Shown: positions 5,038 through 62,955 of the stretch, in pieces
Layout of the letters: each line of letters starts with the position of its first letter
How positions within the stretch are numbered: position 1 is the stretch's first letter
Source of the DNA: Candidatus Babeliales bacterium
GTDB taxonomy: Bacteria; Babelota; Babeliae; Babelales; JANWKD01
NCBI GenBank assembly: GCA_963762115.1
Contig: CAVXJH010000006.1
Coordinates: 192,001-256,000 of the forward strand
Direction of reading: 5' to 3'
Length of the DNA: 64,000 bases
Made by a program: the position numbers and the translations under genes
Notes under the pieces: generated by a model
What the model was told of the DNA's origin: nothing
What the model saw: only the letters and a program-made list of their open reading frames with translations
The model's database searches: none

Positions 5038-6813
5038 ATGAGAAATGGTATGCAAAAAAATTATCTTCGCACTATTGGATGCGGTTCAGTTGATGAAAAA
5101 ATGCTCAATACGACAATTCATCTTTCAGGTTGGGTTGATGGACGTCGTGATCATGGCGGTCTTATTTTTATTGATTTGCGTGATCGTAGCGGTTTAATGC
5201 AACTTGTTTTTAACCCTGTATTTTCAGCCCAAGCACATAAAAAAGCGCATGAATTGCGTTCAGAATTTGTTATTTCTGTAACGGGTACCGTTGTTGCACG
5301 AAGTGCTGAAACGGTGAATGAAGAGTTGCCTACGGGCAGATGGGAATTGCAAGTAACTGAATTAATGGTGTTAAATACCTCAAAAGCTTTACCTTTTTCT
5401 CTTGATGCTGATGATATTGATGAAGAATTGCGTTTAAAGTATCGTTATCTTGATTTGCGTCGTCCTGCTATGCAGCGACGTCTTGCTTTGCGCAATGATA
5501 TTATTTTTGCTATGCGTTATTTTTTGCAACATAACGGTTTTTATGAAATTGAAACACCAATTTTAACGAAAAATACTCCTGAAGGTGCGCGAGAATTTAT
5601 CGTTCCTTCACGGCTGCACCAAGGCAGTTTTTATGCATTACCGCAATCACCACAACTTTATAAACAACTTTTGATGGCAAGTGGTTTTGAGCGTTATTTC
5701 CAAGTTGCGCGTTGTTTCAGAGATGAAGATTTACGAGCAGATCGTCAGCCTGAGTTTACGCAGCTTGACATAGAAATGTCGTTTGTAAAAGAAAATGATA
5801 TTATTGGTCTTATTGAAAATTTATTTCAATTTTTATTCAAAAAGATTTTTGATGTTGAGTTGACGTTACCATTGCCTCGCATGAACTATGATGAGGCTTT
5901 TGCTTTATATGGTTCTGATAAACCTGATTTGCGTTTTGATTTAAAAATTGTAGATTTTACCTCTGTTTTTCAAAACACAGAACTAAAATTTTTGCGTGCT
6001 GTGCTTGATAAAGGCGGTAAAATTGGCGGGTTGCAGGTTAAGAGTAAAAACTTTACGCGTTCTGAATTAGATGCCTATGTTGAATGGGCTCGTAAAGCGG
6101 GTTCCTCTGGTTTATTGTGGGTTCGTGTTGGTGAAAATAACACACTCGAAGCACCTGTTGCTAAATTTTTCCCACCTGATTTTTTTAATCAGTTGAAAAC
6201 AATATGTCCTTCACTTGAACAAGGTGACACCTTATTCCTGCTTGCAGGTCAATATGATGAAGCATGGGTTCATATTGGCAGATTGCGCCTTGAATTAGCG
6301 CGTGATTTGGGAATTATTCCTGTTGGAAAGCTACATTTATCATGGGTTACTGATTTCCCTCTTTTTGAATATGATAAAGAATCGAAACAATGGAATTCCA
6401 TGCATCATCCCTTTACTTCTCCGCAAGAAGGTTGGGAAAAACTTGAGCCTGGTCAAATGAAAGCACGTGCTTACGATATCATATTAAATGGCGTTGAACT
6501 TGGCGGTGGATCAATTCGTATTTTTAATAGTGAAGTTCAAAATAAAGTTTTCCAATTGCTTGGTCTTGATGAAAAAGCAATGCATGATAAATTTGGCTTT
6601 TTATTAGAAGCACAAGAATATGGTTTCCCACCGCATGGCGGCATTGCTTTAGGACTTGATCGTTTGCTTATGTTATTAACAAATGCTACCTCAATTCGTG
6701 AAGTTATTGCGTTCCCTAAAACGGCACGTGGTTATGATCCTATGATGCAATCGCCAACCGGTGTTGATGATAAGCAGCTTAAAGAATATGGTTTGCAGAA
6801 GATCAAGAAATAA
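5038..6813 (+). CDS. aspS: Aspartate-tRNA ligase (start may be 5050)
   Basis: RRDHGGLIFIDLRD, ALPQSPQLYKQLLM, CFRDEDLRADRQPEFTQLD and PPHGGIALGLDR motifs. Confidence 0.98.
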   Translation: MRNGMQKNYLRTIGCGSVDEKMLNTTIHLSGWVDGRRDHGGLIFIDLRDRSGLMQLVFNPVFSAQAHKKAHELRSEFVISVTGTVVARSAETVNEELPTGRWELQVTELMVLNTSKALPFSLDADDIDEELRLKYRYLDLRRPAMQRRLALRNDIIFAMRYFLQHNGFYEIETPILTKNTPEGAREFIVPSRLHQGSFYALPQSPQLYKQLLMASGFERYFQVARCFRDEDLRADRQPEFTQLDIEMSFVKENDIIGLIENLFQFLFKKIFDVELTLPLPRMNYDEAFALYGSDKPDLRFDLKIVDFTSVFQNTELKFLRAVLDKGGKIGGLQVKSKNFTRSELDAYVEWARKAGSSGLLWVRVGENNTLEAPVAKFFPPDFFNQLKTICPSLEQGDTLFLLAGQYDEAWVHIGRLRLELARDLGIIPVGKLHLSWVTDFPLFEYDKESKQWNSMHHPFTSPQEGWEKLEPGQMKARAYDIILNGVELGGGSIRIFNSEVQNKVFQLLGLDEKAMHDKFGFLLEAQEYGFPPHGGIALGLDRLLMLLTNATSIREVIAFPKTARGYDPMMQSPTGVDDKQLKEYGLQKIKK

Positions 6814-10048: not shown

Positions 10049-10140
10049 GTACTTTAATTTTTTCTATTTTCTTAACATATACTCTGTTATAATCTTTGCG
10101 TTATCATAGCTTTTTTAGAGAAAAAACAAGTCTGATTAAA
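10049..10140. repeat. Copy of the eno upstream spacer (about 11669-11760)
   Basis: tagcttttttagagaaaaaacaagt[c/a]tgattaaa and flanking similarity are shared. Confidence 0.85.
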
Positions 10141-10179
10141 CAACTTAAAGAATATGGTTTGCAGAAGATAAAGAAGTAA
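10137..10179 (+). repeat. Duplicated 3' end of aspS (KQLKEYGLQKIKK*)
   Basis: 39 of 43 nt identical to 6771-6813; all 4 differences are synonymous third-codon changes. Confidence 0.92.
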
Positions 10180-11648: not shown

Positions 11649-11793
11649 TGTTTTATCCCTTAAGTAGTGTACGTTAGTTTTTTCTAGTTGCTTAGCATAT
11701 ATTCTTTTATAATTTTTACATTATCTTAGCTTTTTTAGAGAAAAAACAAGTATGATTAAATAAAGTAAATGTGATGATATAAAGGGGTTCTTA

Positions 11794-15789: not shown

Positions 15790-15800
15790 TATTTAATTCC

Positions 15801-20829: not shown

Positions 20830-20842
20830 TTTTATAATCCGT

Positions 20843-21982
20843 TTAAGTTCTAAGTGGTACAGAATTCATAAGCATATTTCTTTGTCTATCACCGGTTGAT
20901 CCGTACTGTACAATATCGCGCTTTTGTCTCATGCGTAACTCGTCTAAAGTTGGTGCAAATTGTTGCCGTTGACGTAAAATTTCGATTCTTTCTGCTTCAA
21001 TCTGCTCGGCTGATTTTATTGGAAGGCCAGAAGTTTCTTTTCCTGGCGTCGTTGCCGTTTTTTCAATTGATTGTAACGTGTAGTGTAGCATAATTTCTTG
21101 ATTATTTCTCATGAGAGTAATGTTGATAGTATCGCCATTATTCATAGCAATTATTTTTTGATAGATTTCGAATCGCGAATCGGTTGTAGTAGAAGGAATA
21201 TTGTTAATTGAGGTAATAATATCACCTTGTTGTAATCCTAAGGCAAGACCTATTGATTTGGGCTGCAAAGCGCCAACGCGGCAACCAATACTTTTACCTT
21301 GCTTATACACAGTAATTAAATTAAATGAGTCAATACACTGACTTAAATTCGAAATGTGTTTTATAAAACTCATTGGATCAACTGCATAGGAATTTTCTCC
21401 CGTTTTTTGTACAACTGAGGTCCAATCATTTGGAGCAAGTAATTGTTGATCAAGTTCTGCATCATATTGATTAACATATAGTGTTTCTTGTTGACCATTT
21501 GAACGGATGAGGATTATTTTATTTCTTAAAATTCTAATTAATTGAGCATCTTCAATTTTATCGCCAATCATATAATTTTTTGCCGTAGTTGATTTTGTGT
21601 CTTGAATAATGGCGATATTTTCTGTTTCATTATTCAAGGTAATGATTCCCTTAAGCGTGATTTGAAGGGGTTCTAGAAATTTTGGTGGCGATGCAATAGG
21701 CACTCTTACCGGTTGTGGCATTGGTGGTTCAGGAATGGCGATTCTTGTTTCAACGGGAGCAAGTATAGGAGAAGGTTGTTGATACGTGCCAAAAAGATCA
21801 TTCATATAAATCTTACTTAAATCAAGTCCTGAAACATCTTTTTTAGGAGGTTTAACCTCGGATTCTGGTTTTAAGCCTGCACGCTTTGGCATTGTTGGCG
21901 CAGACAACATTATAAAGCCTATAACGATAAAAAATAACAATAATAATGCGTCATTAAGCAGCCAAAAGGGATGTTTCATCAA
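20843..21982 (-). CDS. gspC: Type II secretion protein GspC (HR plus PDZ domains)
   Basis: N-terminal TM segment, Pro-rich linker, LKGI...AII...GDKI HR domain, PDZ motif LGLQQGDIITSIN; first gene before gspD. Confidence 0.85.
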   Translation of the reverse strand: MMKHPFWLLNDALLLLFFIVIGFIMLSAPTMPKRAGLKPESEVKPPKKDVSGLDLSKIYMNDLFGTYQQPSPILAPVETRIAIPEPPMPQPVRVPIASPPKFLEPLQITLKGIITLNNETENIAIIQDTKSTTAKNYMIGDKIEDAQLIRILRNKIILIRSNGQQETLYVNQYDAELDQQLLAPNDWTSVVQKTGENSYAVDPMSFIKHISNLSQCIDSFNLITVYKQGKSIGCRVGALQPKSIGLALGLQQGDIITSINNIPSTTTDSRFEIYQKIIAMNNGDTINITLMRNNQEIMLHYTLQSIEKTATTPGKETSGLPIKSAEQIEAERIEILRQRQQFAPTLDELRMRQKRDIVQYGSTGDRQRNMLMNSVPLRT

Positions 21983-27410: not shown

Positions 27411-27839
27411 GTGAAAAACTATAGGGGTAAAATAGTGAATTTTCGTGCATTTAAACAAAATAAATTATGGAGAGATAAAGCAGTTGATATGACTGAAGCA
27501 AATGGCTCTAGAGTTCATTGGGAAAGGTTAAATGATGTTGAATTTTCTGAGCAATTAAAAATAAAATTTATGGAAGAAGCGCATGAGGTTTGTGCAGCAA
27601 AAACTAAAGAAGCATTGGTCGAAGAGCTTGCTGATATTTTAGAAGTTATTGGCTCACTATGTGAAGCTCATGATTTTACTTTACAGGATATTATGAATGC
27701 GCAATCCAAAAAACATCAAGAACGTGGTGGATTTGGTGGTCGAAAGTTTGTTACTCATGCAGAACATGAAGTTGGTAGTTTTGGAGAAAAATATTGTTTA
27801 GCTGATCCTGAAAAATATCCAGAAATTGAAAGTTATTAA
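27411..27839 (+). CDS. MazG-like / all-alpha NTP pyrophosphohydrolase
   Basis: NKLWRD, EEAHE, EELADILEV and K...RGGF motifs. Confidence 0.8.
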   Translation: MKNYRGKIVNFRAFKQNKLWRDKAVDMTEANGSRVHWERLNDVEFSEQLKIKFMEEAHEVCAAKTKEALVEELADILEVIGSLCEAHDFTLQDIMNAQSKKHQERGGFGGRKFVTHAEHEVGSFGEKYCLADPEKYPEIESY

Positions 27840-27848
27840 AATAATGAA
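27811..27848 (+). repeat. 38-bp perfect direct repeat, left copy (right copy 29243-29280)
   Basis: aaaaatatccagaaattgaaagttattaaaataatgaa is identical on both sides of the serine hydrolase gene. Confidence 0.95.
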
Positions 27849-27857
27849 TCGGACTTC

Positions 27858-29243
27858 ATGTTAAAGAAAATTAGTATAAAAAATTTATTTTTAATGGTGA
27901 GTTTTATATCTGCGATGACGAATGGCTCTACTGAAATAGCAGGTAAGCCAGATAATATTAAGACTATGAGCAAACAATTAGATGTATACATGGATGCATT
28001 AACAAAGCTAAATCGTTTTAGTGGTACGGTTATTGTTACAAAAGGAAATGAAATATTACTCAACAAAGGCTATGGATTTGCAAGTTTAGAATTTGAAGTT
28101 CCTAATACAGAACATACACTCTTTAGAATATGTTCAATTACTAAAATGGTTACTGCCGCAGCTCTTATGCAATTGCAAGAAAGAGGTTTGTTAAATGTTC
28201 ATGATGTTGTAAATAAATATATTCCTGATTTTCCTAGAGGTAATGAGATAACGATTCACCAATTGCTTTCGCATACTTCTGGAGTATCCTCTGAGAATTT
28301 TCCGCTTGAGATGGTTGTTCAACCAGCACATTTCGATCAAATAATCTCTTTTATTAAAAGTAAACCACTAGAATATGATCCTGGTTCAGATTATCGTTAT
28401 AGTAATGGCGGTTATTATGTGCTTTCACATATTATTGAAAAAGTTTCTGGAAAAACGTATGAATCATTTGTTAAAGAAAATATTTTAGTACCGAGTGGCA
28501 TGAAAGAGAGCTTTTTTCGTGAGCAAGAGTATGCAATTTTAAAAAATTGTGCTGTTGGCTATTGCTTGAATGAAAAAAATGAAATAGTAAATGGTCATTA
28601 TATTTATGAAAATTTTAAAGGCGGTGGCGGATTATTTTGTACAGCGCTTGATCTTTATAAATTTGCTCGATCATTGAATGCATTGGCATTGATTAATCAA
28701 AAATCTTTGAAAGCTATGGTTACGCCTTATCACCATCAAGAGAATTATGGGTACGGCTGTCACATTCAAGAGTTAATGAAAAAAAGATATATAGAACATG
28801 GTGGTATGTTATCAAGTGGATTTAAATCAAATGTAACTATATTTATCGATGATGAAATTTATATCGTGCTTTTAAGCAACCTTTTTTCTTCATGGGTTAA
28901 TGAAGCGCGTAATTCGCTTGCAGCAATCGTCTTAGGATTACCATATGACATTCCAAGTTTGCAAGTTATCAAGCTAAGTTCAGATGCCTATAATGATTAT
29001 GTAGGTTTGTATGACCATCCAGCTTTTAAGTTGGGTTATAAAATTGAAAGAAAAGGAGATTCACTCTATTTACCAGATAACATAGAACTTTCGGCCGTTG
29101 CAAAAGATCAGTTTATGACTTTAAATCGAAATGCAAACAATGTAGTTTATAGGTTTGCAAGAGATGAAACTGGATTAATAATACAATTGAGAATTATAGG
29201 TGGCGCACCTTATTTTGAAATACGATGTGATAAAATTAGATAA
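27858..29243 (+). CDS. Serine hydrolase, beta-lactamase class C / PBP-like family
   Basis: SITK (SxxK), LLSHTSG, YSN and HGG motifs; signal peptide. Confidence 0.92.
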   Translation: MLKKISIKNLFLMVSFISAMTNGSTEIAGKPDNIKTMSKQLDVYMDALTKLNRFSGTVIVTKGNEILLNKGYGFASLEFEVPNTEHTLFRICSITKMVTAAALMQLQERGLLNVHDVVNKYIPDFPRGNEITIHQLLSHTSGVSSENFPLEMVVQPAHFDQIISFIKSKPLEYDPGSDYRYSNGGYYVLSHIIEKVSGKTYESFVKENILVPSGMKESFFREQEYAILKNCAVGYCLNEKNEIVNGHYIYENFKGGGGLFCTALDLYKFARSLNALALINQKSLKAMVTPYHHQENYGYGCHIQELMKKRYIEHGGMLSSGFKSNVTIFIDDEIYIVLLSNLFSSWVNEARNSLAAIVLGLPYDIPSLQVIKLSSDAYNDYVGLYDHPAFKLGYKIERKGDSLYLPDNIELSAVAKDQFMTLNRNANNVVYRFARDETGLIIQLRIIGGAPYFEIRCDKIR

Positions 29244-29280
29244 AAAATATCCAGAAATTGAAAGTTATTAAAATAATGAA
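29243..29280 (+). repeat. 38-bp perfect direct repeat, right copy
   Basis: Identical to 27811-27848; supplies the ATG of the peptidase E gene. Confidence 0.95.
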
Positions 29281-31651: not shown

Positions 31652-32167
31652 ATGTATAATGCAATTGAGTTGAATAAAAATGCGTATATAAATCAAATGA
31701 TTATTGCATGGCAAACGTACATACATACAAAAGCAAATTGGCATGAATTAGTTAATAGTGTTGTGCCAAAATATACAGGCAACGGCGCAATTTATGAACT
31801 GCCTAATTTTTTGAATCGGCCAAACGAAAGTTTTGCTGTTTGTGATATGCGAGAACTACTTTTTAGTGAACCGCATTATCATCCTGATAATGATATCGAA
31901 ATTTATTTTGTTCTTGAGGGAAGTGCCCTTGTTGTAGTTGGCAATAATGAACAGCATGCACATAAAGGGGATGTGATAATTATTCCTTCAAATACGGCAC
32001 ATTTTACTATTCCAAACAATGAATTTATCATGGCCATAGTTAACACGCCGCTATTTAAATTTGAAAGTTATATCGTTGTTAATCAAACTAATCCAGATGT
32101 TATTTTTGATCATGAATATTTTATTGAGTTAACCACGAAATGTAATGTGAAAGGAAAAACATGGTAA
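31652..32167 (+). CDS. Cupin-domain protein
   Basis: PHYH...EIYFVLEG...GDVIIIP...H cupin signature. Confidence 0.85.
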   Translation: MYNAIELNKNAYINQMIIAWQTYIHTKANWHELVNSVVPKYTGNGAIYELPNFLNRPNESFAVCDMRELLFSEPHYHPDNDIEIYFVLEGSALVVVGNNEQHAHKGDVIIIPSNTAHFTIPNNEFIMAIVNTPLFKFESYIVVNQTNPDVIFDHEYFIELTTKCNVKGKTW

Positions 32168-32745
32168 TACCAATTTTATTAACAGTCTTATTGGGAAATC
32201 AAATTACTGATATTATTCCAACGATTGCAAAACTTAGAATCAAATCATTCAAAGGATATCCTTATCTTTATAATGGCACATTAGAAAGTGAACTTGAATA
32301 TCTTGAATTGTATAAAAATAATGAACATGCGTTAGTGGTCCAAGAAAGCGAATCAGCTGAAACAGTAATGCTTATTGGAGCGCCATTAATTGATATTTTC
32401 CCTGAAGCAAAAACAATCTTTGAATCTGCGCAGTATAATGCAGATGAATGTTATTATGCTGAAGAAGTTGTTTTGCCATTGGCAAATATGCCACTTATTC
32501 TTGAAGCATTTGAAGCGCAGGTGATCAAATGGAACTATAAAAATCTCTGTTTAATTACCGTAAAAGAAGAAGAAAATCATCCTTTAAAGCCAGAAAACTA
32601 TCAAAGTATTGAGCCATTGTTTGAAGAGCTGGGTTTTTCAAAAACAGATCTTTCAATTTCCGCGGCATATTCTACTTTTTGTGCTGGTGGTTCTGTGCAA
32701 CAACGCGGGCATGAATTTGTGTTTTGGATAAAAAAATTGAATTAA
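32161..32745 (+). CDS. GNAT-like acetyltransferase with eroded motif A
   Basis: FKGYPYLY, HPLKP, LGFSKT and FWIKKL are shared with the 32822 and 48901 paralogs; QxxGxG is absent. Confidence 0.7.
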   Translation: MVIPILLTVLLGNQITDIIPTIAKLRIKSFKGYPYLYNGTLESELEYLELYKNNEHALVVQESESAETVMLIGAPLIDIFPEAKTIFESAQYNADECYYAEEVVLPLANMPLILEAFEAQVIKWNYKNLCLITVKEEENHPLKPENYQSIEPLFEELGFSKTDLSISAAYSTFCAGGSVQQRGHEFVFWIKKLN

Positions 32746-32821
32746 TTATTACATTACTCTAAAAGTGAAAATTGTTATTCAAGAAATTTAATAGCAACGT
32801 ATTTAGTTGGTTCAAAATGTC

Positions 32822-33430
32822 TTACTTATTTAATTCTTTAGTCCAAAAAGTAAGAGTATTTTCGTGCATTTCTACTGTTCCTTGTTCATCCATAATAGTT
32901 GGCCATGATTCTTTAATTGTTAAAGAAGTTTTTGAAAAACCTAAGCGTTGCCAAAATATTGCAGGATCTTTGAAGTTTGTAGGTTTTAAAGGATGATCTT
33001 CTTTGCGTTCAACAGTACAAAGACAAATTTTTTTATATCCCCAAAATCGAGCTTTCTTTTCTAGTTTTTTATAAAGTTTTGAACCGATTCCTTTATTTTG
33101 ATACTGAGATAAAACAATGACATCATTAATATGAAAAAAATCAGATGGGTCTAGATTGTTTTTTTCAAAAAGTTCAGCTTCATATGAATATGCTAATAAT
33201 GGAATGCCAGTTGCAATAGCTATTACGGTATGATCATTAGTCTGTGCAATTAAAAATGTACAATGTGGTTCTTGTGAAAACTTTTTGAAATTATCTTTTA
33301 CGCCCTCAAAGGTTCCTTGGTTTAAGATAGGATATTCTTTAAAAATATTAAGCCATCCGGGTAGTATACTTTCTGGAATATTTAATATTTGTAGTCCAAT
33401 ATACATAGTGATTATTAAAGAAGATGTCAT
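32822..33430 (-). CDS. GNAT acetyltransferase
   Basis: VIVLSQYQNKGIG motif A, HPLKP and WQRLGF. Confidence 0.88.
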   Translation of the reverse strand: MTSSLIITMYIGLQILNIPESILPGWLNIFKEYPILNQGTFEGVKDNFKKFSQEPHCTFLIAQTNDHTVIAIATGIPLLAYSYEAELFEKNNLDPSDFFHINDVIVLSQYQNKGIGSKLYKKLEKKARFWGYKKICLCTVERKEDHPLKPTNFKDPAIFWQRLGFSKTSLTIKESWPTIMDEQGTVEMHENTLTFWTKELNK

Positions 33431-35256: not shown

Positions 35257-35988
35257 TTAATTTGCTTCCTTTTCTTTTTCTGCATGCTCTTGTTTTAGGA
35301 GTTGTAAAATTTCTTGAGTGTTTTTGAGGGCTCTTTCTCTATGCTCCTGATCTTTATCTTTATCATCATTCCAAAAGATAATTTCATGATTATAGAGCTG
35401 TTTATAGCGTTTTTTAATAAAATCAAGAGTGTTAGATTCATTAACAATTAATTCAGGGTCGCCATCATGTTCTAACAATTTTTTGAAAAGAACGAGAGCT
35501 GGTCGGTAACCATATGAAGCTGATTCTGTTGTGAATCTCAATAATGAGATTTTTTTTTGATCAAAAGAGTTGATTATAAAGCTGTTTGGTGTAAATTTGG
35601 TTGCTTCAAAATAGGTATTCAATACTTGATCTAAAATACCAAGTTCATTATATTTTTCTGCCCAAAAAAGAATATGTGATCTAAAGAATTGAAATGATTC
35701 TTTTTGGATGTTTGGATTTTCTAAATAAGATGTGAAATAGTCATAAAATTTTTCGGATTCAGATTTTTTAACAGTTAATATTTCTTGTGGGGAAACATAT
35801 TCTTTTTTTCTTGCTTTAGCGCGTTTTCTTTGCAAGCCTCTTCTTTGACCCTTGGTTATTTTTGGTGCTGTACTACTTTCTTGAATGATAGAAGTTGCTG
35901 AAAGTGCAGAAGCACCTTCTTCCATGGCAATTAATAAATAAGAACTTGATATGGTTAACAAGAACATTGAATATTTTAAAAACTTCAT
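35257..35988 (-). CDS. Exported protein of a local paralog family (SASYGY domain)
   Basis: AAGGAG RBS before the ATG at 35988; signal peptide; domain shared with 36118 and 41053. Confidence 0.8.
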   Translation of the reverse strand: MKFLKYSMFLLTISSSYLLIAMEEGASALSATSIIQESSTAPKITKGQRRGLQRKRAKARKKEYVSPQEILTVKKSESEKFYDYFTSYLENPNIQKESFQFFRSHILFWAEKYNELGILDQVLNTYFEATKFTPNSFIINSFDQKKISLLRFTTESASYGYRPALVLFKKLLEHDGDPELIVNESNTLDFIKKRYKQLYNHEIIFWNDDKDKDQEHRERALKNTQEILQLLKQEHAEKEKEAN

Positions 35989-36061
35989 AGAAAACTCCTT
36001 TTTTTCTTGAAAAATTTTTTTAAGATTCTTGCTTACTCTAATAGAGATTGAGATTTGATGC

Positions 36062-36092
36062 AAAAAAAGGCAGAGAAAATTCTCTGCCTTTT
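36062..36092 (-). terminator. Rho-independent terminator
   Basis: 12-bp stem aaaaggcagaga/tctctgcctttt followed by a U-run on the minus strand, downstream of 36118-37464. Confidence 0.8.
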
Positions 36093-36117
36093 ATATTTAC
36101 AAAATGTTGGAAAAAAA

Positions 36118-37464
36118 TTAGTCAGCTTTTTGTTGCGCTTTTTCTTTTTTTTCTTGTTCTTCTTTAATGCGTTGCGCAATATATTTCGATGCTTCACAAC
36201 GTTTTTCTGCTATAGCCGTTTTTGCTATTCTCGTATACTCGGTAGAATAATTGCCTTTGCGTGGGGTATGAATTTGCTGTTTAATAAAATGAGAAGCATG
36301 ATTACAATAATAATCACATTCATTGTTAACATCTTCTTCGAGGTTGGTTTTTCTGTCGCTATGAATATAATCGTCTTCTGTAACAACTGCTGCATCACCA
36401 CCACGGAGTAGTAATTTTTCAAAAAGAATTCGATGCTTTTTTTTGCCGGAATTCGCTGCTTTAACGGCGATATATTGGAATAGAGTATTTCTATCTGTTG
36501 AATATTCAGGGAAATTAGTAAAGCCAAAAAACGTAGTCTCTCTTCCTCTATGCTTCATCCATTTTTCAATAACTGAATTTGGATTCTTTTTCGTTTTTTT
36601 AAAAAAATAATCAAGAGCTTTATCTAAGATGTCTAATTTTTCAAATTTTTCGGCATTTTTGATTAGAGGGTTAAGTTGATAAACTATATTATTATGAGTT
36701 TGATGTCCTCTTACTTTTTCTTTAAGATCTTTTTTGAAATCACTGAGGGCTTTTTTACCTTCTTTAACGTTTTTAAGGCGCTGCAAAATTCCTTTTATTT
36801 TTTTACATCCTTGGGTATTATTTCCGTTATATCCGTGACATAAAAATTGATCATATCTTTTTTCAATACAATCAATGGTATTAGATCCATTGATTACTAG
36901 TTCGGGATCACCGCCACGCTCTAACAATTTTTTAAAAAGAATTTCGGCTGGTTCATAACCATATGAAGCAGAATCAGTTATGAATTGAAAGAAAGAAGTT
37001 TTTTCTTTATCAACAGTACCGATAAGTTTTATCATTGTGTTTGGCGTTGTCTTTGTGATTTCAAAATAGGTATCCAATACTTCATCAAGAATGCCAAGTC
37101 TATCATATTTTTCTGCCCAGAAAAGTATATCGCTATTAAAGAAATCGTAAATAGGGGAACTTATTTCTCTGTTGTACACTTCCCCCAATGATTCTCGGGC
37201 ATCTTTTTTATTTAACAATAGATTAAGCGCATAATTTTCTTGGTTTATTAATGCATCGAGTTTAGATTTGAAAGCATTTAATACGGTTACAGATTCAGGT
37301 TCAACAGCTTCAACTTTTGGCGGCGTGCATTCATCAGGAGTAACAGAACCAAAAGAATCGATGGTTTCAGGACCTATTTTGGGCGATGGAACTTCCCATG
37401 CTGCAAGTGCATGAGCGTTGTACCCAGCGAGCAATGCAATAAAAAGTATTTTTTGTATTTTCAT
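36118..37464 (-). CDS. Exported protein with two copies of the SASYGY-family domain
   Basis: Signal peptide from MKIQKILF; AEK..LGILD..LD.YF..TK..PN...LF.KLL.RGGD occurs twice. Confidence 0.8.
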   Translation of the reverse strand: MKIQKILFIALLAGYNAHALAAWEVPSPKIGPETIDSFGSVTPDECTPPKVEAVEPESVTVLNAFKSKLDALINQENYALNLLLNKKDARESLGEVYNREISSPIYDFFNSDILFWAEKYDRLGILDEVLDTYFEITKTTPNTMIKLIGTVDKEKTSFFQFITDSASYGYEPAEILFKKLLERGGDPELVINGSNTIDCIEKRYDQFLCHGYNGNNTQGCKKIKGILQRLKNVKEGKKALSDFKKDLKEKVRGHQTHNNIVYQLNPLIKNAEKFEKLDILDKALDYFFKKTKKNPNSVIEKWMKHRGRETTFFGFTNFPEYSTDRNTLFQYIAVKAANSGKKKHRILFEKLLLRGGDAAVVTEDDYIHSDRKTNLEEDVNNECDYYCNHASHFIKQQIHTPRKGNYSTEYTRIAKTAIAEKRCEASKYIAQRIKEEQEKKEKAQQKAD

Positions 37465-37618
37465 GAAATTATTTCTTCCATTCATTTTTAAAATAGTAAC
37501 ATTAATAAATAGTATATAGTAATTATGGCTACTTTCAAGCAAACTAAAAACAATTTATAATTTCAGTCAGAAATTATCATTCTGTACAAAGTGTTACTTG
37601 AAATTATCAAATTTGTTT

Positions 37619-41052: not shown

Positions 41053-41730
41053 TTATTTCAAGCGTTGCAAGACTAGTTGAGAACTTTTTGTAACTTGGTC
41101 TGTGTATTTTTTATTTTTTTCGTTCATGTGTATAGCTAAAGGATCTTGACTAGAAAAATAATTATATCTTTTTTCAACAATTTCAATGGTGCTAGAACCA
41201 TCAATGATTAACCGAGGATTGCCGCCACGCTCTAATAATTTCTCAAAAAGAATTTGAGCTGGTTTATAACCATAAGAAGCAGAATCAGTTATAAATTTGA
41301 ATAATGAAGTTTCTTTTTTATCAAGGGGGTCAATTATAAGAGTATTTGGTGTAATTTTGTTAGCTTTAAAGTAAGCATCCAACACTTTATCTAAAATACC
41401 AAATTCATTATATTTTTCTGCCCCATAAAAAACATATTTTCTAAAAAATTGAAATGATTCTTTTGAGATATTCTGATCATTAAGTTGAGATTCGAAATAA
41501 TCATAAATGGCCTTGGAATGGGATTGTTTCACCGCTAATTCTTTTTTTCTTTCCGCAGCGCGTTTTCTTTGCAAGCCTCTTCTTTGGCCTGTTGTTATTC
41601 TGGATGTTTTATTACTTTCTTTAACAACGTAAGTTTTATGTGCAAGTATTGATGCATTTTCTTGCATTGCAACTAATAAAAAAGAATGGGATATCGTTAA
41701 TAAAGATAATAAGGATTTAAAGAAAACCAT
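41053..41730 (-). CDS. Exported SASYGY-family paralog
   Basis: AAGGA RBS before the ATG at 41730; GQRRGLQRKRA and the downstream domain are shared with 35257. Confidence 0.8.
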   Translation of the reverse strand: MVFFKSLLSLLTISHSFLLVAMQENASILAHKTYVVKESNKTSRITTGQRRGLQRKRAAERKKELAVKQSHSKAIYDYFESQLNDQNISKESFQFFRKYVFYGAEKYNEFGILDKVLDAYFKANKITPNTLIIDPLDKKETSLFKFITDSASYGYKPAQILFEKLLERGGNPRLIIDGSSTIEIVEKRYNYFSSQDPLAIHMNEKNKKYTDQVTKSSQLVLQRLK

Positions 41731-41840
41731 AAAGAATTCCTTTAACAGTTTTTTTGAACAATAATTTTTCATAGGCAGTAAAACTAAAGCACGCTAGGTT
41801 TTTTGTCAATTAAAACCTAATGCATAGCATTTAATTTTTA

Positions 41841-48900: not shown

Positions 48901-49512
48901 ATGATTTCAATGCCTATTGCATGCATTCTTGGTATGCAAATTTTGAATTTTATACATACGGCACCAGAAATTATTTTAAACACCTTTAAAGAATATCCTT
49001 ATTTGCATAGTCCTAGTCTTGAAGAAAAAAAAACGTATCTTACTTGGTTTGCAGAAAATAAAGAAGGCATACTTATTGTGGCGCATGATCAAGATGAGTT
49101 GGCTGGTTTGATCACGGGTATTCCTATGGAAGCAGTGAAAGAATATATTCCTGAAATTGATGAATTGTTTAAACAAAATAATTTGTATTTAAAAGATTGT
49201 TATTATTGTGGGGATGTTATTGTTTTGCCCGGTTATCAAAGGCAAGGCCTCTGTAGTAAAATGTTTTCTGCCTTTGAACAAAAAGTAAAAGCTTTGGGTT
49301 ATAAAACAATATCCTTGATCACCTCAGTGCGAGAAGAAGATCATCCATTAAAACCTGCACAGTATGTTGATCCAGGAAGTATTTGGCAACATTATGGTTT
49401 TAACAAAACTTCAATTATCATAAAAAATATGCAGCCAACCGTTATTGATGATTTGGGCGCTGTTGAAGAGCAAGAAAATTCCTTTGTTTTTTGGATTAAA
49501 AAATTAGAGTGA
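48901..49512 (+). CDS. GNAT acetyltransferase
   Basis: VIVLPGYQRQGL motif A, HPLKP and FWIKKLE; paralog of 32161 and 32822. Confidence 0.88.
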   Translation: MISMPIACILGMQILNFIHTAPEIILNTFKEYPYLHSPSLEEKKTYLTWFAENKEGILIVAHDQDELAGLITGIPMEAVKEYIPEIDELFKQNNLYLKDCYYCGDVIVLPGYQRQGLCSKMFSAFEQKVKALGYKTISLITSVREEDHPLKPAQYVDPGSIWQHYGFNKTSIIIKNMQPTVIDDLGAVEEQENSFVFWIKKLE

Positions 49513-49543
49513 TGTTTTAAATTATACTACATAAAGGGAAATT

Positions 49544-50737
49544 ATGAATTTTTATCAACTATGTATGATTGTTGTTTTTATTTTTTATCCAATTGGTTTT
49601 TTATTTGGGGTTAATGAAGAGCTAAAAAAAAATCTGTTGCAATTAGAAAATGCCCTAGATCAATTACATACATCATTGAACATACAAAGTTATAAAAAAG
49701 AATCTGTTCAAAAAACAATACAGAAAACAGATACAGAAAAAAGTATTGAAGAATTAATTATACCATTTAATGAATCAGATTTTGAATTATTGCCTCTAGA
49801 ACTAAAAGAAAAAGTTTTATTAGAATTGGTGCCGACATCAGTAATTCAGAATGCAGACCAGTTGATTGACAAATTACAAAAATTTACGAATATTGGCCAG
49901 CCTAATAAGGCCATTAGGGATGTCTTGTCCGATGAACATTTTATGAAAAATATAATCAAAGTAATGTTTTCTAAAATTGAAAATAATAAAATAATAGAAG
50001 ATGCAATAAAAAAGATTAGAGACTTTAGAAATCCTTATGATCCAAGTTTTAGAATAAGAATACTGCCGGTTTTTCAACAAGCCCTTAAAAACGTTATGAA
50101 TAAAATTGAAATGTATAAAAAAGCGGTAGATTCGAATAGAAAAGAGGTAGAAAATCTTACAAAAGAACTTATTGAAAAAAACTATTTGAATCCTAATTTT
50201 TTTATTGATGACAATGCGTTTTTGCATAATGCTGTTAAGAAGGATTTTTCAGGATTGATAGATTATTTAATAGAAAAAGGTGCAAATATCCATGCTAAAA
50301 ATAAAAAATTTGAAACACCTTTATTAATTGCTTTAAAAAATGACCCTCAATTAGCATTAGAATTAATGAAAAAATATAAAAATGTTAGGCTTACTGATGA
50401 AAGTAGTTTTATTATTAGGCTATTGTATTTCAATAAAGATACTTATATGGAAGCAATCAAAAAATTAATTAAGAAATCAGTTAAGAGAGGTTTAAGTCCT
50501 AATGCTGACAACTTAAAGTCTGCGCAATTTCGCACTCCCCTATTGATATGGGCAATTGATATAGCTGAATCAACAGGGTCCTTAAGGGGGAATTTGGATT
50601 TAATTGAATTTTTATTAAAACGCGGTGCAGATCCTGAACTTGAGTATGTAGATCATAGTGAAAATATAGATACGCCCTTAAATTATGCTAAAGATTATCC
50701 TGATATTATTGCATTGATGAATATTTATAAAAAATAA
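49544..50737 (+). CDS. Exported F-box-like plus ankyrin-repeat protein
   Basis: Signal peptide; FELLPLELKEKVLLEL; ankyrin motifs EKGANIH, ETPLLIAL and KRGADP. Confidence 0.8.
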   Translation: MNFYQLCMIVVFIFYPIGFLFGVNEELKKNLLQLENALDQLHTSLNIQSYKKESVQKTIQKTDTEKSIEELIIPFNESDFELLPLELKEKVLLELVPTSVIQNADQLIDKLQKFTNIGQPNKAIRDVLSDEHFMKNIIKVMFSKIENNKIIEDAIKKIRDFRNPYDPSFRIRILPVFQQALKNVMNKIEMYKKAVDSNRKEVENLTKELIEKNYLNPNFFIDDNAFLHNAVKKDFSGLIDYLIEKGANIHAKNKKFETPLLIALKNDPQLALELMKKYKNVRLTDESSFIIRLLYFNKDTYMEAIKKLIKKSVKRGLSPNADNLKSAQFRTPLLIWAIDIAESTGSLRGNLDLIEFLLKRGADPELEYVDHSENIDTPLNYAKDYPDIIALMNIYKK

Positions 50738-50779
50738 TTTTTTTTTAAAAAAGATGAGGATTTTGCTTTTTTATGCCTA

Positions 50780-50930
50780 ACTTTTGGCATACATTTTTTA
50801 GCATTTTTACTTTCAACTGCATGATAGACTTGACGAATTGAAACAGTGCCAAATTTGTTGTGTGCAGAAAGGCCGAGTTGTTGCCAAGGCTGAAGAATCA
50901 CGTTTCTGCCCATAATTTTTGAATGATGCA
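50780..50930 (-). pseudogene. Decayed gene remnant, homologous to 52468-52620
   Basis: With frameshifts it encodes ...KNY...HAVESKNAKKMYAKS, versus ...KNY...HAMESLKAKKMYAESRS* in the second copy. Confidence 0.5.
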
Positions 50931-50953
50931 AGATTTTATTGTTTTAAATTTTT

Positions 50954-51019
50954 TTGGATTAAAGATTTGAAGTAAGCCTTTGATTATTGGATTAAAGATT
51001 TGAAGTAAGCCTTTGATTA
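50954..51019 (+). repeat. 33-bp perfect tandem duplication containing a GNAT-like 3' end
   Basis: ttggattaaagatttgaagtaagcctttgatta twice; encodes (F)WIKDLK*. Confidence 0.9.
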
Positions 51020-51058
51020 TAAGCTCATTTTAGATAGTTATTGGCTTTTTATAGTAAT

Positions 51059-51087
51059 TTGACAGTATTTTCTTTTTGTATTATTAT
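51059..51087 (+). promoter_or_regulatory. Candidate sigma70 promoter for 51158
   Basis: TTGACA-17 bp-TATTAT. Confidence 0.5.
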
Positions 51088-51157
51088 GAAAAATAAAATA
51101 TATTTTTCATATATGGTTATTTTTAAATAATATACAATAAGGGTAAAAATATAAATC

Positions 51158-52462
51158 ATGAATTACTTTAAGATACATTATATGCTTCGGTTGCATATTT
51201 TATTTTTGATATGCATATCATTCTTTTCTGACATAATGCAGGCAGTAAATATTGAACATAAAAAATTTTTTGATAGTTCATCAATGGAAAAACAGGATCA
51301 ACTATTAAAAAAAGTTGAAAATATTGCGTCAAATCAGGATTATTCAGACGATGATTATGAAAAATGTGTTAGATTGGCACATACAGTGAATAAAAAATAT
51401 TCTGCAAATGTTCCTGCGAATTTTATTAATCAACCTACTCAAAATCAACAAGATTATCAGAGAATTATCGCACTAGGTCATGACGTCAATAAAAGATATT
51501 CTGCAAAGCATAAAAATTTATTTTTTCCAAAGGTAATTAACGTTGAGGAAAAGATAAAGGAGAGTATCAAAGAAAAGGATAAAAAAGGGCCTCAAGCAAT
51601 TGATTATTTCTCCGTAATTCCCTATAAAAAACCCAATGCAATAGCGCTTTCATTAATACCACAATCAATTCACAATGGGGATGAACTTCTATCTGTGTTG
51701 GGAGCGATTAATAATTTTGTAACTAATCATAAGCATCGCGAATTATTTGAATCGGAAGAATTTTTAAAATTATTCAAAGCAAAATTATCGCATGCCATTG
51801 CTGCAGATACAATATTTAATGATGCTTTAGAAAAGCTAAAAAAGACTCAAGTTTTAAAGTGCCTTAAAATAGTGGAAGCGCTACAAGAGATTGAAAATAA
51901 AATTGCAAACCATATTGTAGAAATAAAAGAAGGAAAATCAGAGAATATAAGACAATTCATTAAAGATGGTTTTGATCCTAATTTTATTATCAATCATAAA
52001 GATCCTTATCTTCCCATAGTATTTCAGAATAATTTATTAAGTTATGTTGATTTTAAAAACAATCCTGAGCTGGCAATAGAATTATTAGAAAAGGGTGTTA
52101 ATCCTAATGGTGCAAATTTATTGCGTAAACAATTTTTTATGCCGCCACCAACGTGGGAGCTTTTTAACGGCTCACGATATATTATTTACAAAAAATTATT
52201 TAAACTTCTTATAGAAAAAGGCTTAGATCCAAATCACAAGTTTAAATTGTGTGAGAATTTCTATCCCACGTTATTAGGAATTGTCGGCTTTTATTTTGAT
52301 TATGATATGGAATTACTTGAAATACTTTTAAAAAAAGGTGCTGATCCTCAATTAGAATATTATATAGAGAGCAGCATAAAAACAACTCCGTGGAAAAATG
52401 CTGAATTGAATAAACGTGAAAAAGTTTTAGCATTATTTAGAAAATATCAAAAATCAGAGTAA
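51158..52462 (+). CDS. Exported degenerate F-box-like plus ankyrin protein with internal repeat
   Basis: Signal peptide; DY....L.H.VNK.YSA twice; EKGVNPN, EKGLDPN and KKGADP. Confidence 0.78.
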   Translation: MNYFKIHYMLRLHILFLICISFFSDIMQAVNIEHKKFFDSSSMEKQDQLLKKVENIASNQDYSDDDYEKCVRLAHTVNKKYSANVPANFINQPTQNQQDYQRIIALGHDVNKRYSAKHKNLFFPKVINVEEKIKESIKEKDKKGPQAIDYFSVIPYKKPNAIALSLIPQSIHNGDELLSVLGAINNFVTNHKHRELFESEEFLKLFKAKLSHAIAADTIFNDALEKLKKTQVLKCLKIVEALQEIENKIANHIVEIKEGKSENIRQFIKDGFDPNFIINHKDPYLPIVFQNNLLSYVDFKNNPELAIELLEKGVNPNGANLLRKQFFMPPPTWELFNGSRYIIYKKLFKLLIEKGLDPNHKFKLCENFYPTLLGIVGFYFDYDMELLEILLKKGADPQLEYYIESSIKTTPWKNAELNKREKVLALFRKYQKSE

Positions 52463-52467
52463 TTTTT

Positions 52468-52620
52468 TTAAGATCGACTTTCAGCATACATTTTTTTAGC
52501 TTTTAGGCTTTCCATTGCATGATCGACAATAGGTTTTTGATATTTTGTAGTAGTTTTTTGTGCAAACCAAGTGTGAATAGTTGATGGAGCATAATTTTTA
52601 AGCTGTGGAATCCATTTTTT
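52468..52620 (-). pseudogene. Decayed gene remnant, second copy
   Basis: KKWIPQLKNYAPSTIHTWFAQKTTTKYQKPIVDHAMESLKAKKMYAESRS*, with an in-frame stop upstream. Confidence 0.5.
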
Positions 52621-52646
52621 GATATAGATATACTATTGGAAAGAAT

Positions 52647-54119
52647 ATGCCCATTTTATTTTTTATGATTATTAGTTTTTTGTTTTTTCATTCTGTCGCC
52701 TTACATGGTATGGATCAATCTAACAAAAACCGCGCAGGTTTATCTTTTAAAGATAGGCGAGTGATAGAGCTCGAGAAAAAAATTGAAGGTATAAGTTTTC
52801 TTGCTTTGGTCGGAATTAATAAGCTTCCAAAATCAAGTTTTAGTAAAGAGCAAAAATACTTTGTTAGAGTTATGCTTGAAAAAGAAGACAAAGAAAATTT
52901 AAAATTATTTCAAGCAGAATTGAAAGAAAAGATGGCACAAAGAGACAGCAATTATGCCGGGCTCTCTTTAGAGGATAGAAATAATAATGAGATTAAAGAA
53001 AAGATTGAAGGTGTAAGCTTTCTTGCCTCAGCCGGCATTAAAAATTCATCAAAAGCATATTTTACTAAAGAGCAAAAATATTTTATCAATTGTAAATTTG
53101 CAGAATTAAATAGATGTTGGTTCAATGAATTACCGATGGAATTACAAGAAAAAGTTATAGAAGGATTAATTCCTTCTAAGGTTACTCCAGATGGGCTATT
53201 ATTCTTATTAAAAGATCTTGCGCATTTTGGCGCAACAAATAAACAAGCTAGAGATTTGATGTGTGCGGAGCTTAAAAAGTATTTTTATAAATGGCCAGAA
53301 TATGGCTTAAATGCACAACATCATTGTATGAGGAATATAATAAAGAGGGTATTTTTGTCTGTGGATTCTGATGTTGCAATAGTTGGAGCTTTAGAATTTA
53401 TTAAAAAATATAAGGGCTTAAAGAATTCTCTTTTGATTTTATTTAAAACAAATTTTAAATCCGTAGATACTTTGATAAGGAAATATAAAATTGCCCTTGA
53501 GCAAAAAAAATTGCATCAGGAATATGACAATCATGCAAGTGCTGATTATGAAAAAAATATAAAAGAAAAAAATAAAGAAATCAAAAAAAATTTAGAGGTC
53601 TTGTTGAGAATAGTTAATCCCAATATTTTAATTGATGATAAAACGTTTTTAGAAAAAGCCCTTGAAGATAATGATTTAGAAATGCTTGATTTTCTTTTAG
53701 ATAAAGGTGCGGACATTAATTTTTTACATGAAGTTACTGAGAGGCTAGTTTTTGTGGGGCTTTCTCAAGAAGATTATTGGGAGATGTTTGTAAAAGCAAA
53801 TCTGCCTTCTTTCATGTTATCAAGATATGAGCAAACTCTTCTTAATGCAGCGGTGCATTCTAATCCACAGTTTGCTCTTGAATTGCTAAAGAGAGATAAC
53901 ATAAATCCCACATTGGGAAGGTATGAAGTTGATTTAGATACTTTTAGAAAAGATTATGGCATTTATAAAGAATTATTTGAAAAACTCATGGAAAAAGGTT
54001 TAGATCCTCAAACAACTTGTAAAATGCCAGGTTATTTTAATGGTATACATACTCTTAAAGCCTTATATAATGAAGCTTGCGTTGGTGTAGATGCAGAAAA
54101 TTATTTAGCAAAAAATTAG
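52647..54119 (+). CDS. Exported F-box-like plus ankyrin protein with duplicated N-terminal module
   Basis: AGLS..DR...E...KIEG.SFLA..GI......F.KEQKYF twice; FNELPMELQEKVIEGL; DKGADIN. Confidence 0.8.
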   Translation: MPILFFMIISFLFFHSVALHGMDQSNKNRAGLSFKDRRVIELEKKIEGISFLALVGINKLPKSSFSKEQKYFVRVMLEKEDKENLKLFQAELKEKMAQRDSNYAGLSLEDRNNNEIKEKIEGVSFLASAGIKNSSKAYFTKEQKYFINCKFAELNRCWFNELPMELQEKVIEGLIPSKVTPDGLLFLLKDLAHFGATNKQARDLMCAELKKYFYKWPEYGLNAQHHCMRNIIKRVFLSVDSDVAIVGALEFIKKYKGLKNSLLILFKTNFKSVDTLIRKYKIALEQKKLHQEYDNHASADYEKNIKEKNKEIKKNLEVLLRIVNPNILIDDKTFLEKALEDNDLEMLDFLLDKGADINFLHEVTERLVFVGLSQEDYWEMFVKANLPSFMLSRYEQTLLNAAVHSNPQFALELLKRDNINPTLGRYEVDLDTFRKDYGIYKELFEKLMEKGLDPQTTCKMPGYFNGIHTLKALYNEACVGVDAENYLAKN

Positions 54120-61594: not shown

Positions 61595-61966
61595 TTAAAC
61601 GGGTATGCCGGTTTCTTTCAACAATTCGGATGGTACTTTGCCATTCAAACCTTGATGCGGCCGATGTTCATTGTGATAGAAATTATATCCAAGAACAGCA
61701 TCTTTTAATTCATCGATTGTGTTAAAGATGGATCCTTCAATAACTTCATCATCAAAAGAACGCCAAAATCTTTCAATTTTTCCATTTGTTTGTGGTCTAT
61801 AAGGCAAAGTTCTTCGATGTTTAATCGCAAAATGAAGTAGCAATCGTTCAAAAGGATGATTTTTTAATTTTTCTGGCGTTGAACAAAACTCAGCACCATT
61901 ATCTGTCAGAGCTTCATCAAAGGTGATATTATATCGTTGGTTCATATGTAAAATAATATCCATCAT
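61595..61966 (-). pseudogene. IS481 transposase, C-terminal part
   Basis: LTDNGAEF, PYRPQTNGKIERF and HNEHRPHQGL (integrase core); in frame with the N-part once IS110 is removed. Confidence 0.92.
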
Positions 61967-62013
61967 AGTGATTGTGTTAAAAGTCAAATATTTTTTAATA
62001 AAGCTAAACAATA

Positions 62014-62955
62014 TTAAGCTTTACATAATTCACCTTTTTTTAGTAAAGAATTAGCAATCACAATAAGTTTATGCATAATAGCTACGATAGCTATTTTAAA
62101 AGGTTTTTTAGAAGTTATTAAACGATCGTAAAGTTCCTTTAATGGGAGATGATATTTAATAGTTGTTAATGCACACATATAAAGCATATTTCTTGGAATA
62201 GTTCTTCCACCTCTGATGAATTTTTTACCCTTATAACTTCCACTTTCATTCTCATAAGGACAAACACCAATGAGTGCTGATACTTTTTTATTACTTATTT
62301 GACCAAGTTCAGGAACGAATGATAATAATGTTGCAGCTGAAGTTTTGCCTATTCCTGGAATTGACTCCAAAATTTTTGATTTTGTATTTAATTTTTCATC
62401 TTGCTGAATTAAATCTTGTATCTTTAAATCAATTGATTTGATTTCGCACTCTAAGATTTTGATAAATTTCTTTATACTTGATGCATATAATGCATGAGAT
62501 GGATGTTTAGATCTTGTTTTTTCGGCAACTAAAAATTTTACCAAGTCATTTTTACGATTGACCAAAGCTTGTAATTTTTCTTGATTTTCGCTTTTGTTCA
62601 TTATCTCATAATCAGGAGAATTTTTAGAAGCAAATTCAGCAATTTTTCGAGCATCAATTTTATCCGTTTTGCTTTTGCAGCCACTAGCAACAATATAGCC
62701 TTTTATTCTTCTTGGATCGATGATCCAAAGATAATAACAATTTTTTTTTAATATTCGAGCAAGTAATTTTTCATACCCACCAGTTGCTTCGCATGCAATT
62801 TGTTCGATATCATATTTAACTAATTCTTTAATGATCTCCGTTATTCCAACTTCTGAGTTTGATACTTTTAAAGATTTTCCTATTGGATGGATATAAACAT
62901 CTAAAGTGTTTTTTGAAATATCGACACCTATAAATACTTTTGATATATTTTTCAT
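62014..62955 (-). CDS. IS110-family DEDD recombinase (bridge recombinase), 313 aa
   Basis: GVDISK, CEATG and KTDKIDA (DEDD); IPGIG; ESG catalytic Ser; GGR..R..LYM. Confidence 0.96.
   Translation of the reverse strand: MKNISKVFIGVDISKNTLDVYIHPIGKSLKVSNSEVGITEIIKELVKYDIEQIACEATGGYEKLLARILKKNCYYLWIIDPRRIKGYIVASGCKSKTDKIDARKIAEFASKNSPDYEIMNKSENQEKLQALVNRKNDLVKFLVAEKTRSKHPSHALYASSIKKFIKILECEIKSIDLKIQDLIQQDEKLNTKSKILESIPGIGKTSAATLLSFVPELGQISNKKVSALIGVCPYENESGSYKGKKFIRGGRTIPRNMLYMCALTTIKYHLPLKELYDRLITSKKPFKIAIVAIMHKLIVIANSLLKKGELCKA

Follow-up and report, generated by a model that had tools for sequence, protein, structure and literature searches.

Displaced gene ends downstream of a GNAT acetyltransferase gene and of housekeeping genes in a Babeliales genome: probable gain of DNA from related bacteria

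Insertion with long target duplication has reportedly been treated by Nobusato et al. in 2000. As detailed by Furuta, Abe and Kobayashi (2010; PMC2853133), it consists of a small insert without mobility genes between long direct repeats, and a link to restriction breaks is proposed for its origin, with no experiment reported for the invasion step. Arrays of effector and immunity genes of the type VI secretion system (T6SS) in Vibrio, and rhs and contact-dependent inhibition (CDI) loci, have been explained by sequential displacement through homology-facilitated illegitimate recombination (PMC5361080), and in Escherichia coli single-crossover integration of recircularised DNA produced gene-end duplications of 109-950 bp rather than deletions (56 of 60 tested clones positive; PMC3240628). 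The Babeliae are protist parasites with many exported ankyrin proteins (PMC4378268; PMC4776705). Here a comparable arrangement is described behind a gene for a GNAT acetyltransferase in a stretch of 64,000 nt (the window) from a Candidatus Babeliales bacterium, which corresponds to C6:192001-256000 of the source genome (G000; 1.53 Mb, 34 per cent G+C, 95 per cent complete).

A block of 1.5 kb behind the GNAT gene is probably of foreign origin: DNA of a related bacterium would have recombined with the final codons of the resident gene, supplying a new gene end and pushing the old one downstream (Table 1). Two GNAT-like endings, FWIKKLE* and FWIKDLK*, had been noted in an earlier reading made from the sequence alone, the second of them inside a 33-nt tandem duplication, and both are present as described. 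The DNA match between the orphan and the resident end (21 of 26 nt, 14 nt of them identical) scores 24.7 bits, which 12 of 2428 control scores reach, and taken alone it is marginal given that about 60 genes were scanned in that reading. The peptide tells more: scored on a profile of GNAT ends, FWIKDLK* lies above 710 of 710 intergenic controls, and the nearest GNAT homolog (P0002, 75 per cent identical) ends in FWVKDLK*, with FWVKDLT* in P0006.

The relatives of this locus point in the same direction. In a relative represented in sequence run X2 (92-95 per cent alike), a GNAT gene with the DLK* end abuts the spacer of gene 51158, so that the locus is 1,497 nt shorter than in the window: one contig of 237 nt contains 49405-49500 (5 differences in 96 nt), the DLK* end and then 51012-51136 (10 differences in 125 nt). 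In G001, a relative of the same genus with a single-contig genome, GNAT is followed by one ankyrin-like gene. Given the profile score, the ending of P0002, the short X2 contig and the layout of G001, the sequence-only reading was very probably right to call FWIKDLK* a GNAT end; it is likely the displaced original one, and the KLE* of the resident end is likely donor-derived. Ankyrin-like protein 2 is likely the older resident of the slot, being 28 per cent identical (E 6e-18) to the lone ankyrin-like product behind GNAT in G001, as against 23 per cent (E 8e-4) for ankyrin protein 1. The three ankyrin-type proteins of the window are paralogs (25-26 per cent identical). They had been described as F-box/ankyrin cassettes; ankyrin repeats are evident in the product of 49544 and weak in those of 51158 and 52647, but no Pfam F-box family is matched at E<=2 in any of the three. 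An F-box-like motif can be picked out by eye.

Table 1. Features of the GNAT locus and of the aspS and mazG loci, in window positions
Feature	Position	Strand	Evidence
GNAT acetyltransferase, anchor gene, 203 aa	48901..49512	+	Pfam PF00583 (Acetyltransf_1) E 4e-9; 56% identical ortholog at syntenic place in G001
Resident GNAT end FWIKKLE*	49487..49512	+	14-nt core 49487-49500 common with orphan, then KLE*; contig of relative matches to 49500, then diverges
Ankyrin-repeat protein 1, 397 aa, hydrophobic N-terminus; cargo	49544..50737	+	Pfam Ank_4 E 1e-8; absent from contig of relative (joint 49500->51012)
Photolyase remnant 1, frameshifted	50767..50936	-	nhmmer E 1.7e-24; tblastn; protein search gives photolyases at 72-78%
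Orphan GNAT end FWIKDLK*	50950..50975 (peptide 50952-50975)	+	Non-coding DNA; GNAT of relative ends in same sequence
Exact tandem duplication, 2 x 33 nt	50954..51020	+	Sequence; relative has one copy
Predicted sigma-70-like promoter before gene 51158	51059..51087	+	11/12 consensus matches; best of 24 sites, number of sites equal to shuffle mean
Ankyrin-like protein 2, 434 aa	51158..52462	+	Pfam ankyrin matches weak (best E 0.036); 25% paralog of 49544 product
Photolyase remnant 2: last 52 codons, open frame	52468..52630	-	Pfam FAD_binding_7 E 3.4e-7; nhmmer E 6e-21 (52481-52630); 52% to L135 photolyase
Ankyrin-like protein 3, 490 aa, third paralog	52647..54119	+	26% to protein 1; Ank_3 E 8e-4; occupies expected place of remaining photolyase
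aspS 3' end, anchor of second case	6771..6813	+	Window alignment
Copy of enolase upstream region (10049-10149, 85% to 11669-11769) joined to orphan aspS end (10137-10179)	10049..10179	+	4 differences, 4 synonymous
mazG-like 3' end plus 9 nt, left copy of perfect 38-nt repeat	27811..27848	+	Window alignment
Single beta-lactamase-fold gene between 38-nt copies	27858..29243	+	Pfam PF00144; no paralog within 10 kb
Right copy of 38-nt repeat, extends into start of peptidase S51 gene	29243..29280	+	100% to left copy

The two antisense remnants are, judged by their sequence, pseudogene pieces from the 3' part of a DNA photolyase gene (PF00875 and PF03441). Their homology had been recognized earlier and holds on alignment (50767-50829 against 52464-52527, 77 per cent over 64 nt, E 1.6e-4 within the window); their extents had been put slightly short, at 50780-50930 and 52468-52620, and the photolyase identity had been missed. 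A codon profile of 30 photolyases (nhmmer) matches 50811-50936 and most of the second remnant, and 50819-50937 matches photolyase at the 88 per cent level. In remnant 1 a deletion has brought an internal piece (50811-50936, corresponding roughly to residues 216-257 of the L135 photolyase) next to C-terminal codons (50767-50829). The identification came through the metagenome locus L135, in which a relative of the GNAT (62 per cent) is followed by a photolyase convergent with it and matched by both remnants; the remnants themselves had no match in G000, in G001 or in 280 kb searched of G003, another Babeliales genome. Neither G000 nor G001 yielded an intact photolyase, while such a gene is present in 137 of 201 genomes from this order. 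A 222-aa antisense gene of G001 was considered as the source of the remnants and did not match.

A donor with the same neighbourhood would have carried GNAT, an ankyrin gene of its own and a convergent photolyase, and a fragment running from its GNAT end through the ankyrin gene and into the photolyase would have been taken up. Entry would have occurred at the 14-nt core that encodes FWIK, with the KLE* of the donor becoming the new working end while DLK* was displaced together with the spacer and gene 51158. The fragment may have been circularised, possibly with a role for Ku, and integrated by one crossover in the common gene end, or homology may have held one of its ends while microhomology served to join the second; this second joint falls in a T run at 50949-50955. 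The events that survive would be those that leave the anchor gene whole, hence tails would recur downstream and heads upstream, and repeated rounds would place the newest block beside the stop codon and so build stacks. Since none is present in the cargo, no dedicated integrase would be needed.

The locus resembles the described systems in part. As in the definition of insertion with long target duplication, the insert is shorter than 20 kb (1.5 kb), a relative has the empty site and no mobility gene is carried; the repeat, however, spans 26 nt (14 identical) rather than more than 30 bp, a length exceeded in 16 of 16 other G000 cases (31-174 nt), and the cargo is an ankyrin gene and a photolyase piece rather than restriction or modification genes. 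For these two reasons the GNAT locus is not counted as a member of that class. Beyond this locus, the repeats in that system likewise often lie over a start or stop and leave the target intact, and its hosts are mostly naturally competent species (PMC2853133). There, restriction-modification genes are found in a few cases per species, whereas here at least 14 cases per genome occur at unrelated genes (aspS, maf, rodA, murB, truA and sbcD; secA and gatB in G001), the cargo consists of ankyrin, WD40, DnaJ and enzyme genes, and the two copies differ in the manner of coding alleles. The Vibrio arrays are alike in that a conserved gene on the upstream side serves as the anchor for incoming DNA of relatives and old parts are pushed downstream, giving polar arrays with no known integrase, but only toxin loci are concerned and the effector domain is replaced, while here many housekeeping gene ends are involved and the anchor protein is nearly unchanged (PMC5361080). 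The E. coli integrations involved plasmid conjugation in the laboratory and an identical homology arm (PMC3240628), in contrast to the natural, diverged alleles and shorter repeats (26-204 nt) seen here.

Displaced ends were sought throughout the genome by aligning the end of each gene (its final 45 nt and a further 10 nt) to the 8 kb downstream and to seven controls. Gene calls made for this analysis gave 1416 genes in G000, of which 1214 were kept after removal of those below 300 nt or less than 8 kb from a contig end; matches inside paralogs or coding DNA were removed before counting, and the threshold was at least 35 bits. In G000, 14 tails recur downstream and 2 upstream (p 0.004), with none mid-gene, far away or on the opposite strand, and 6 heads recur upstream with none downstream (p 1e-4). 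The downstream count was 18 before four rows of one paralog array (C6:349-361 kb) were set aside; this array (L132, G000:C6:349268-361607) comprises about 13 genes, the end of each overlapping a conserved junction of 70 nt with the start of the following one, and it was excluded from the counts. The sister genome behaves in the same way, with 10 tails downstream among 1119 genes, 2 upstream, 1 mid-gene and none far or opposite, and with 4 heads upstream and none downstream.

Elsewhere such ends are rarer. Orphan tails downstream number 1 of 573 in G003 (680 kb sampled), 2 of 339 in G020 (400 kb of a second Babeliales genome) and 0 of 224 in 300 kb of E. coli K-12, and displaced ends thus look concentrated in this genus (24 of 2333 as against 3 of 1136 in the two other Babeliales and E. 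coli, p 0.013, from partial samples and with kin not independent). The E. coli sample alone does not differ significantly from G000 (p 0.09, with the count of 18 taken before correction). Among the anchors are maf, rodA, murB, sbcD, truA, gpsA and aspS, and in G001 secA, gatB and valS, while the cargo ranges over ankyrin, WD40, DnaJ, MavL-like, GNAT, hydrolase and unknown genes. Inserts are 0.5-6.4 kb in all 28 listed pairs, and the 8-20 kb range yielded one match, from a paralog array. By a crude signal-peptide rule, 19 of 28 cargo genes look exported compared with 528 of 1416 in the genome (p 0.001), and G001 has a counterpart at 50 per cent or more for 4 of 28, compared with 738 of 1416 of all genes. 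Where the anchor has an ortholog in the other genome, the site there is empty in 5 of 12 and 3 of 10 cases, and the remainder have other cargo or are like tandem duplications.

The sequence-only reading had expected enrichment of displaced ends beside ankyrin genes, and none was found in the cargo (2 of 28 by a local profile, p 0.10, although that profile finds just 27 genes; 3 of 28 by Pfam). Its broader proposal, a general and transposase-free mechanism that grows effector arrays, is borne out in that the pattern is genome-wide and directional, with empty sites and with no mobility gene among 28 cargo genes, but the pattern is not specific to ankyrin arrays, and the genome has IS110 and integrase-core genes.

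If the copies were alleles acquired from other lineages, they might be expected to differ as coding sequences do. Over 28 pairs and 670 codons there are 112 synonymous and 81 non-synonymous differences (pN/pS 0.18-0.26), whereas neutral decay of a local duplicate beside a conserved gene predicts a pN/pS of about 0.5 by our own calculation and a synonymous share of 0.42 (p 7e-6; 0.003 for G000 alone; 0.002 without secA), synonymous counting being simple and alignment ends being picked by score. Similarity also tends to stop where the gene stops, with 19 of 28 copies ending 0-10 nt past the stop codon and 21 per cent of intergenic gaps being that short. Given this stopping point and the synonymous bias, many orphans were likely functional ends until recently, from a lineage other than that of the present end, and not decayed local duplicates. 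In each of three stacks the nearest copy is the most alike and identity drops with distance, the copies being about equally different from one another.

Several observations weigh against a gain of the block from a relative. The empty site is seen in one X2 contig at a depth of 2.7, a deletion through the 14-nt core would yield the same short form, and no read spans the junctions of the block. There is no long diverged donor tract: GNAT is 95-96 per cent alike to the relative up to 49500 and other genes are 94-97 per cent alike, and given this evenness a crossover in the short core fits better than a long donor tract, though either may have occurred. Among the copies at large, 81 differences are non-synonymous. 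The aspS, gpsA, murB and G1_951737 cases fit plain tandem duplication equally well; the mazG repeat is identical, so no foreign allele is needed, and no empty site for it was found in four relatives of the family (peptidase S51 gene in 0 of 4, mazG in 2 of 4). Ku was considered as the cause of the high rate, but it is also present in G003 and G020, where scars are rarer, and is not sufficient. Lastly, when read on its opposite strand, 50991-51059 looks like the stretch of photolyase that would be expected there: photolyase P0016 aligns to it without gaps at 11 of 23 residues, above all 1656 controls, the part that overlaps the repeat has a fixed-register p of 6e-5 (P0016), and 8 of 41 photolyases give p<=0.01.

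This last resemblance raises an alternative for the GNAT locus only, in which FWIKDLK* is the opposite strand of a photolyase remnant extending to 51059, the window has the older arrangement, and the short form of the relative results from a deletion between 14 bases that are identical by chance. FWIKDLK* was first read in this way, and the reading was demoted to a rival after the X2 contig and the comparison with 41 photolyases. Residues 117-139 of P0016 lie ungapped on 51059-50991, 188 nt from the LSAHNKFG motif where 186 would be expected, this alignment is the best match of the segment in the genome (E 0.11), at most one of 710 controls scores as high on the photolyase family profile, and DNA matches as strong as that of the GNAT pair arise by chance for 0.5 per cent of genes. 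Yet few of the references are less similar to remnant 1 than P0016 is (14 of 41 residues), three of the six photolyases closest to that remnant give no antisense signal (p 0.16, 0.19 and 0.52), the nhmmer match ends at 50936, and an X2 photolyase contig with an intact frame ceases to match at 50937. The antisense strand would also have to spell the ending of the nearest GNAT homolog by chance, stop included, and the spacing works only if both 33-nt copies are counted, while the relative has one. The alternative is therefore held to be improbable, and a displaced GNAT end is preferred.

Local tandem duplication would give the same topology, with the segment from the anchor end to the next gene copied in place, the ankyrin copies then diverging and deletions trimming the rest, and the paralogy of the three ankyrin genes would follow from it. 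The two further cases claimed earlier within the window, at aspS and mazG, are real, and the first of them suits such a history, since its repeat (6771-6813 and 10137-10179, 91 per cent over 43 nt) belongs to a unit that repeats the tail, an ankyrin gene and the enolase upstream region. A paralog lies within 10 kb of 9 of 28 cargo genes, and 37 tandem duplications have been counted in Babela (PMC4378268). Against this stand the 19 cargo genes without a nearby paralog, the synonymous bias of the copies and the arrest of similarity mostly at the stop codon, and at the GNAT locus the 25 per cent protein identity of ankyrins 1 and 2 does not fit the 77 per cent DNA identity of the dead photolyase pieces. 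For the GNAT locus this history is thus unlikely; across the genome tandem duplication probably explains a minority of cases, and a tandem copy or a recent duplication of the target may account for some scars, for example the identical mazG repeat.

Displaced ends could also be left by a site-specific element that brought a replacement gene end and later lost its integrase, as prophage e14 at icd of E. coli leaves icdC. The e14 case is alike in its displaced 3' end downstream, its synonymous bias and its similarity ending at the stop (icd and icdC have 10 synonymous and 2 other differences, counted by hand as icd fell under the edge filter), and G000 has two large serine recombinases, one of which is preceded at 7 kb by a repeat of its first 160 nt. 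But e14 needs an adjoining integrase and a 15-kb element, of which neither is found here: none of 28 G000 cargo genes matches an integrase, transposase or recombinase family above the cut-off, inserts are short as given above, at least 14 unrelated targets would require as many integrases, and the insert at the GNAT locus carries an ordinary neighbour of the donor, the photolyase. Decayed integrase islands are accordingly a very unlikely source. The cargo of G001, scanned with 2 genes left out, includes one IS200 fragment, and a restriction-type domain occurs in 1 of 28 cargo genes of G000. The genome contains two PF00589 tyrosine recombinases and three PF00239 matches (two of them full serine recombinases), none at scar loci; the two of the tyrosine type are located on C3 at a distance from the stacks, and no integron integrase lies beside the arrays. 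By their size, the pair is presumably XerC and XerD.

G000 and G001 were both assembled from communities, no junction-spanning read was seen, and differences like those of alleles would be expected of strain mixtures; an assembly artefact from mixed strains would nevertheless have to join a tail behind cargo at a junction found in neither strain. The copies have stops and indels of their own and, in one case, a tandem duplication, the pattern recurs in an independent single-contig genome, and 164 nt of ankyrin 1 and a piece of ankyrin 3 are present without difference in run X1, so that the probability of an artefact is negligible. (Runs X1 and X2 hold small shares, 0.15 and 0.05, and their uncovered parts prove nothing.)

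Genes predicted to encode ComEC, DprA, RecA and Ku, and two ATP-dependent ligase domains, are present in G000, and it is conceivable, if doubtful, that the genus runs an integron-like capture assembled from housekeeping functions, in which DNA of co-infecting relatives is taken up, closed into circles by Ku and ligase and integrated via 14-200 nt of homology at conserved gene ends. Dozens of these ends would turn into arrays that are polar and renew themselves, made up of exported host-interaction genes able to pop out and move elsewhere; long target duplications in general would then be swapped alleles rather than copies of the target. The Ku and ligase genes lie at G000:C3:255590-256405, C3:76282-76884 and C6:1627-2646, and Ku occurs in 23 of 101 genomes of the order, patchily by family. 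Reverse transcription was set aside as a route, G000 (95 per cent complete) having no PF00078 match.

The pattern as such has published precedents (PMC2853133; PMC5361080). What is new here is how densely it occurs at housekeeping genes in a single parasite genus, together with the allele-like way in which the copies diverge; no literature description of it in the Babeliae was found (subscription papers were not covered), and the available text of PMC4776705 contains no occurrence of 'tandem', 'recombination' or 'competence'. That about 1 per cent of genes show the pattern, with no restriction cargo and with allele-like copies, points to recombination with relatives, and suggests how reduced protist parasites with few mobile elements keep acquiring exported proteins. 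Part of the tandem duplication that has been counted may be stacked lateral gains, and orphan ends date and order such gains.

Some further loci deserve mention. An orphan secA end in G001 (C1:117074-122100; L038, L039) comprises the last 67 codons with 21 synonymous and 2 other differences, no stop and an intact zinc-binding motif, and with a methionine 37 codons before its stop it might be translated. Three orphan ends are stacked behind a 901-aa gene at L113 (G000:C6:76729-84053), with an MntA/HepT pair, a gene of unknown type and a beta-propeller gene between them; the 901-aa product ends like an outer-membrane protein. The cargo at G001:C1:1030304-1032457 and G000:C6:76833-79385 are reciprocal best matches (35 per cent) behind different anchors, so that cassettes may move between anchors, or the two may be paralogs. 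In G020, which belongs to another family of the order, an orphan end lies 4.8 kb downstream of its gene (C1:338575-343900), a gene whose ending resembles that of ribosomal protein S1. Few genes and many short dispersed direct repeats occupy G000:C5:166500-177300, and on the same contig the large serine recombinase with the repeat of its initial 160 nt (C5:155652-164195, 95 per cent) possibly marks an integrative element. Within the window, a convergent pair of GNAT paralogs of the anchor at 32161-33430 ends in FWIKKLN* and FWTKELN*, three paralogs without a Pfam family (35257-37542 and 41053-41772) are 70-75 per cent alike in DNA, and an IS110-family transposase gene stands beside an integrase-core (rve) gene at 61595-62955. 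A secretion or pilus cluster at 13033-21982 encodes PilM, a GspC-like protein and two secretins, and may have a role in export or in the uptake of DNA.

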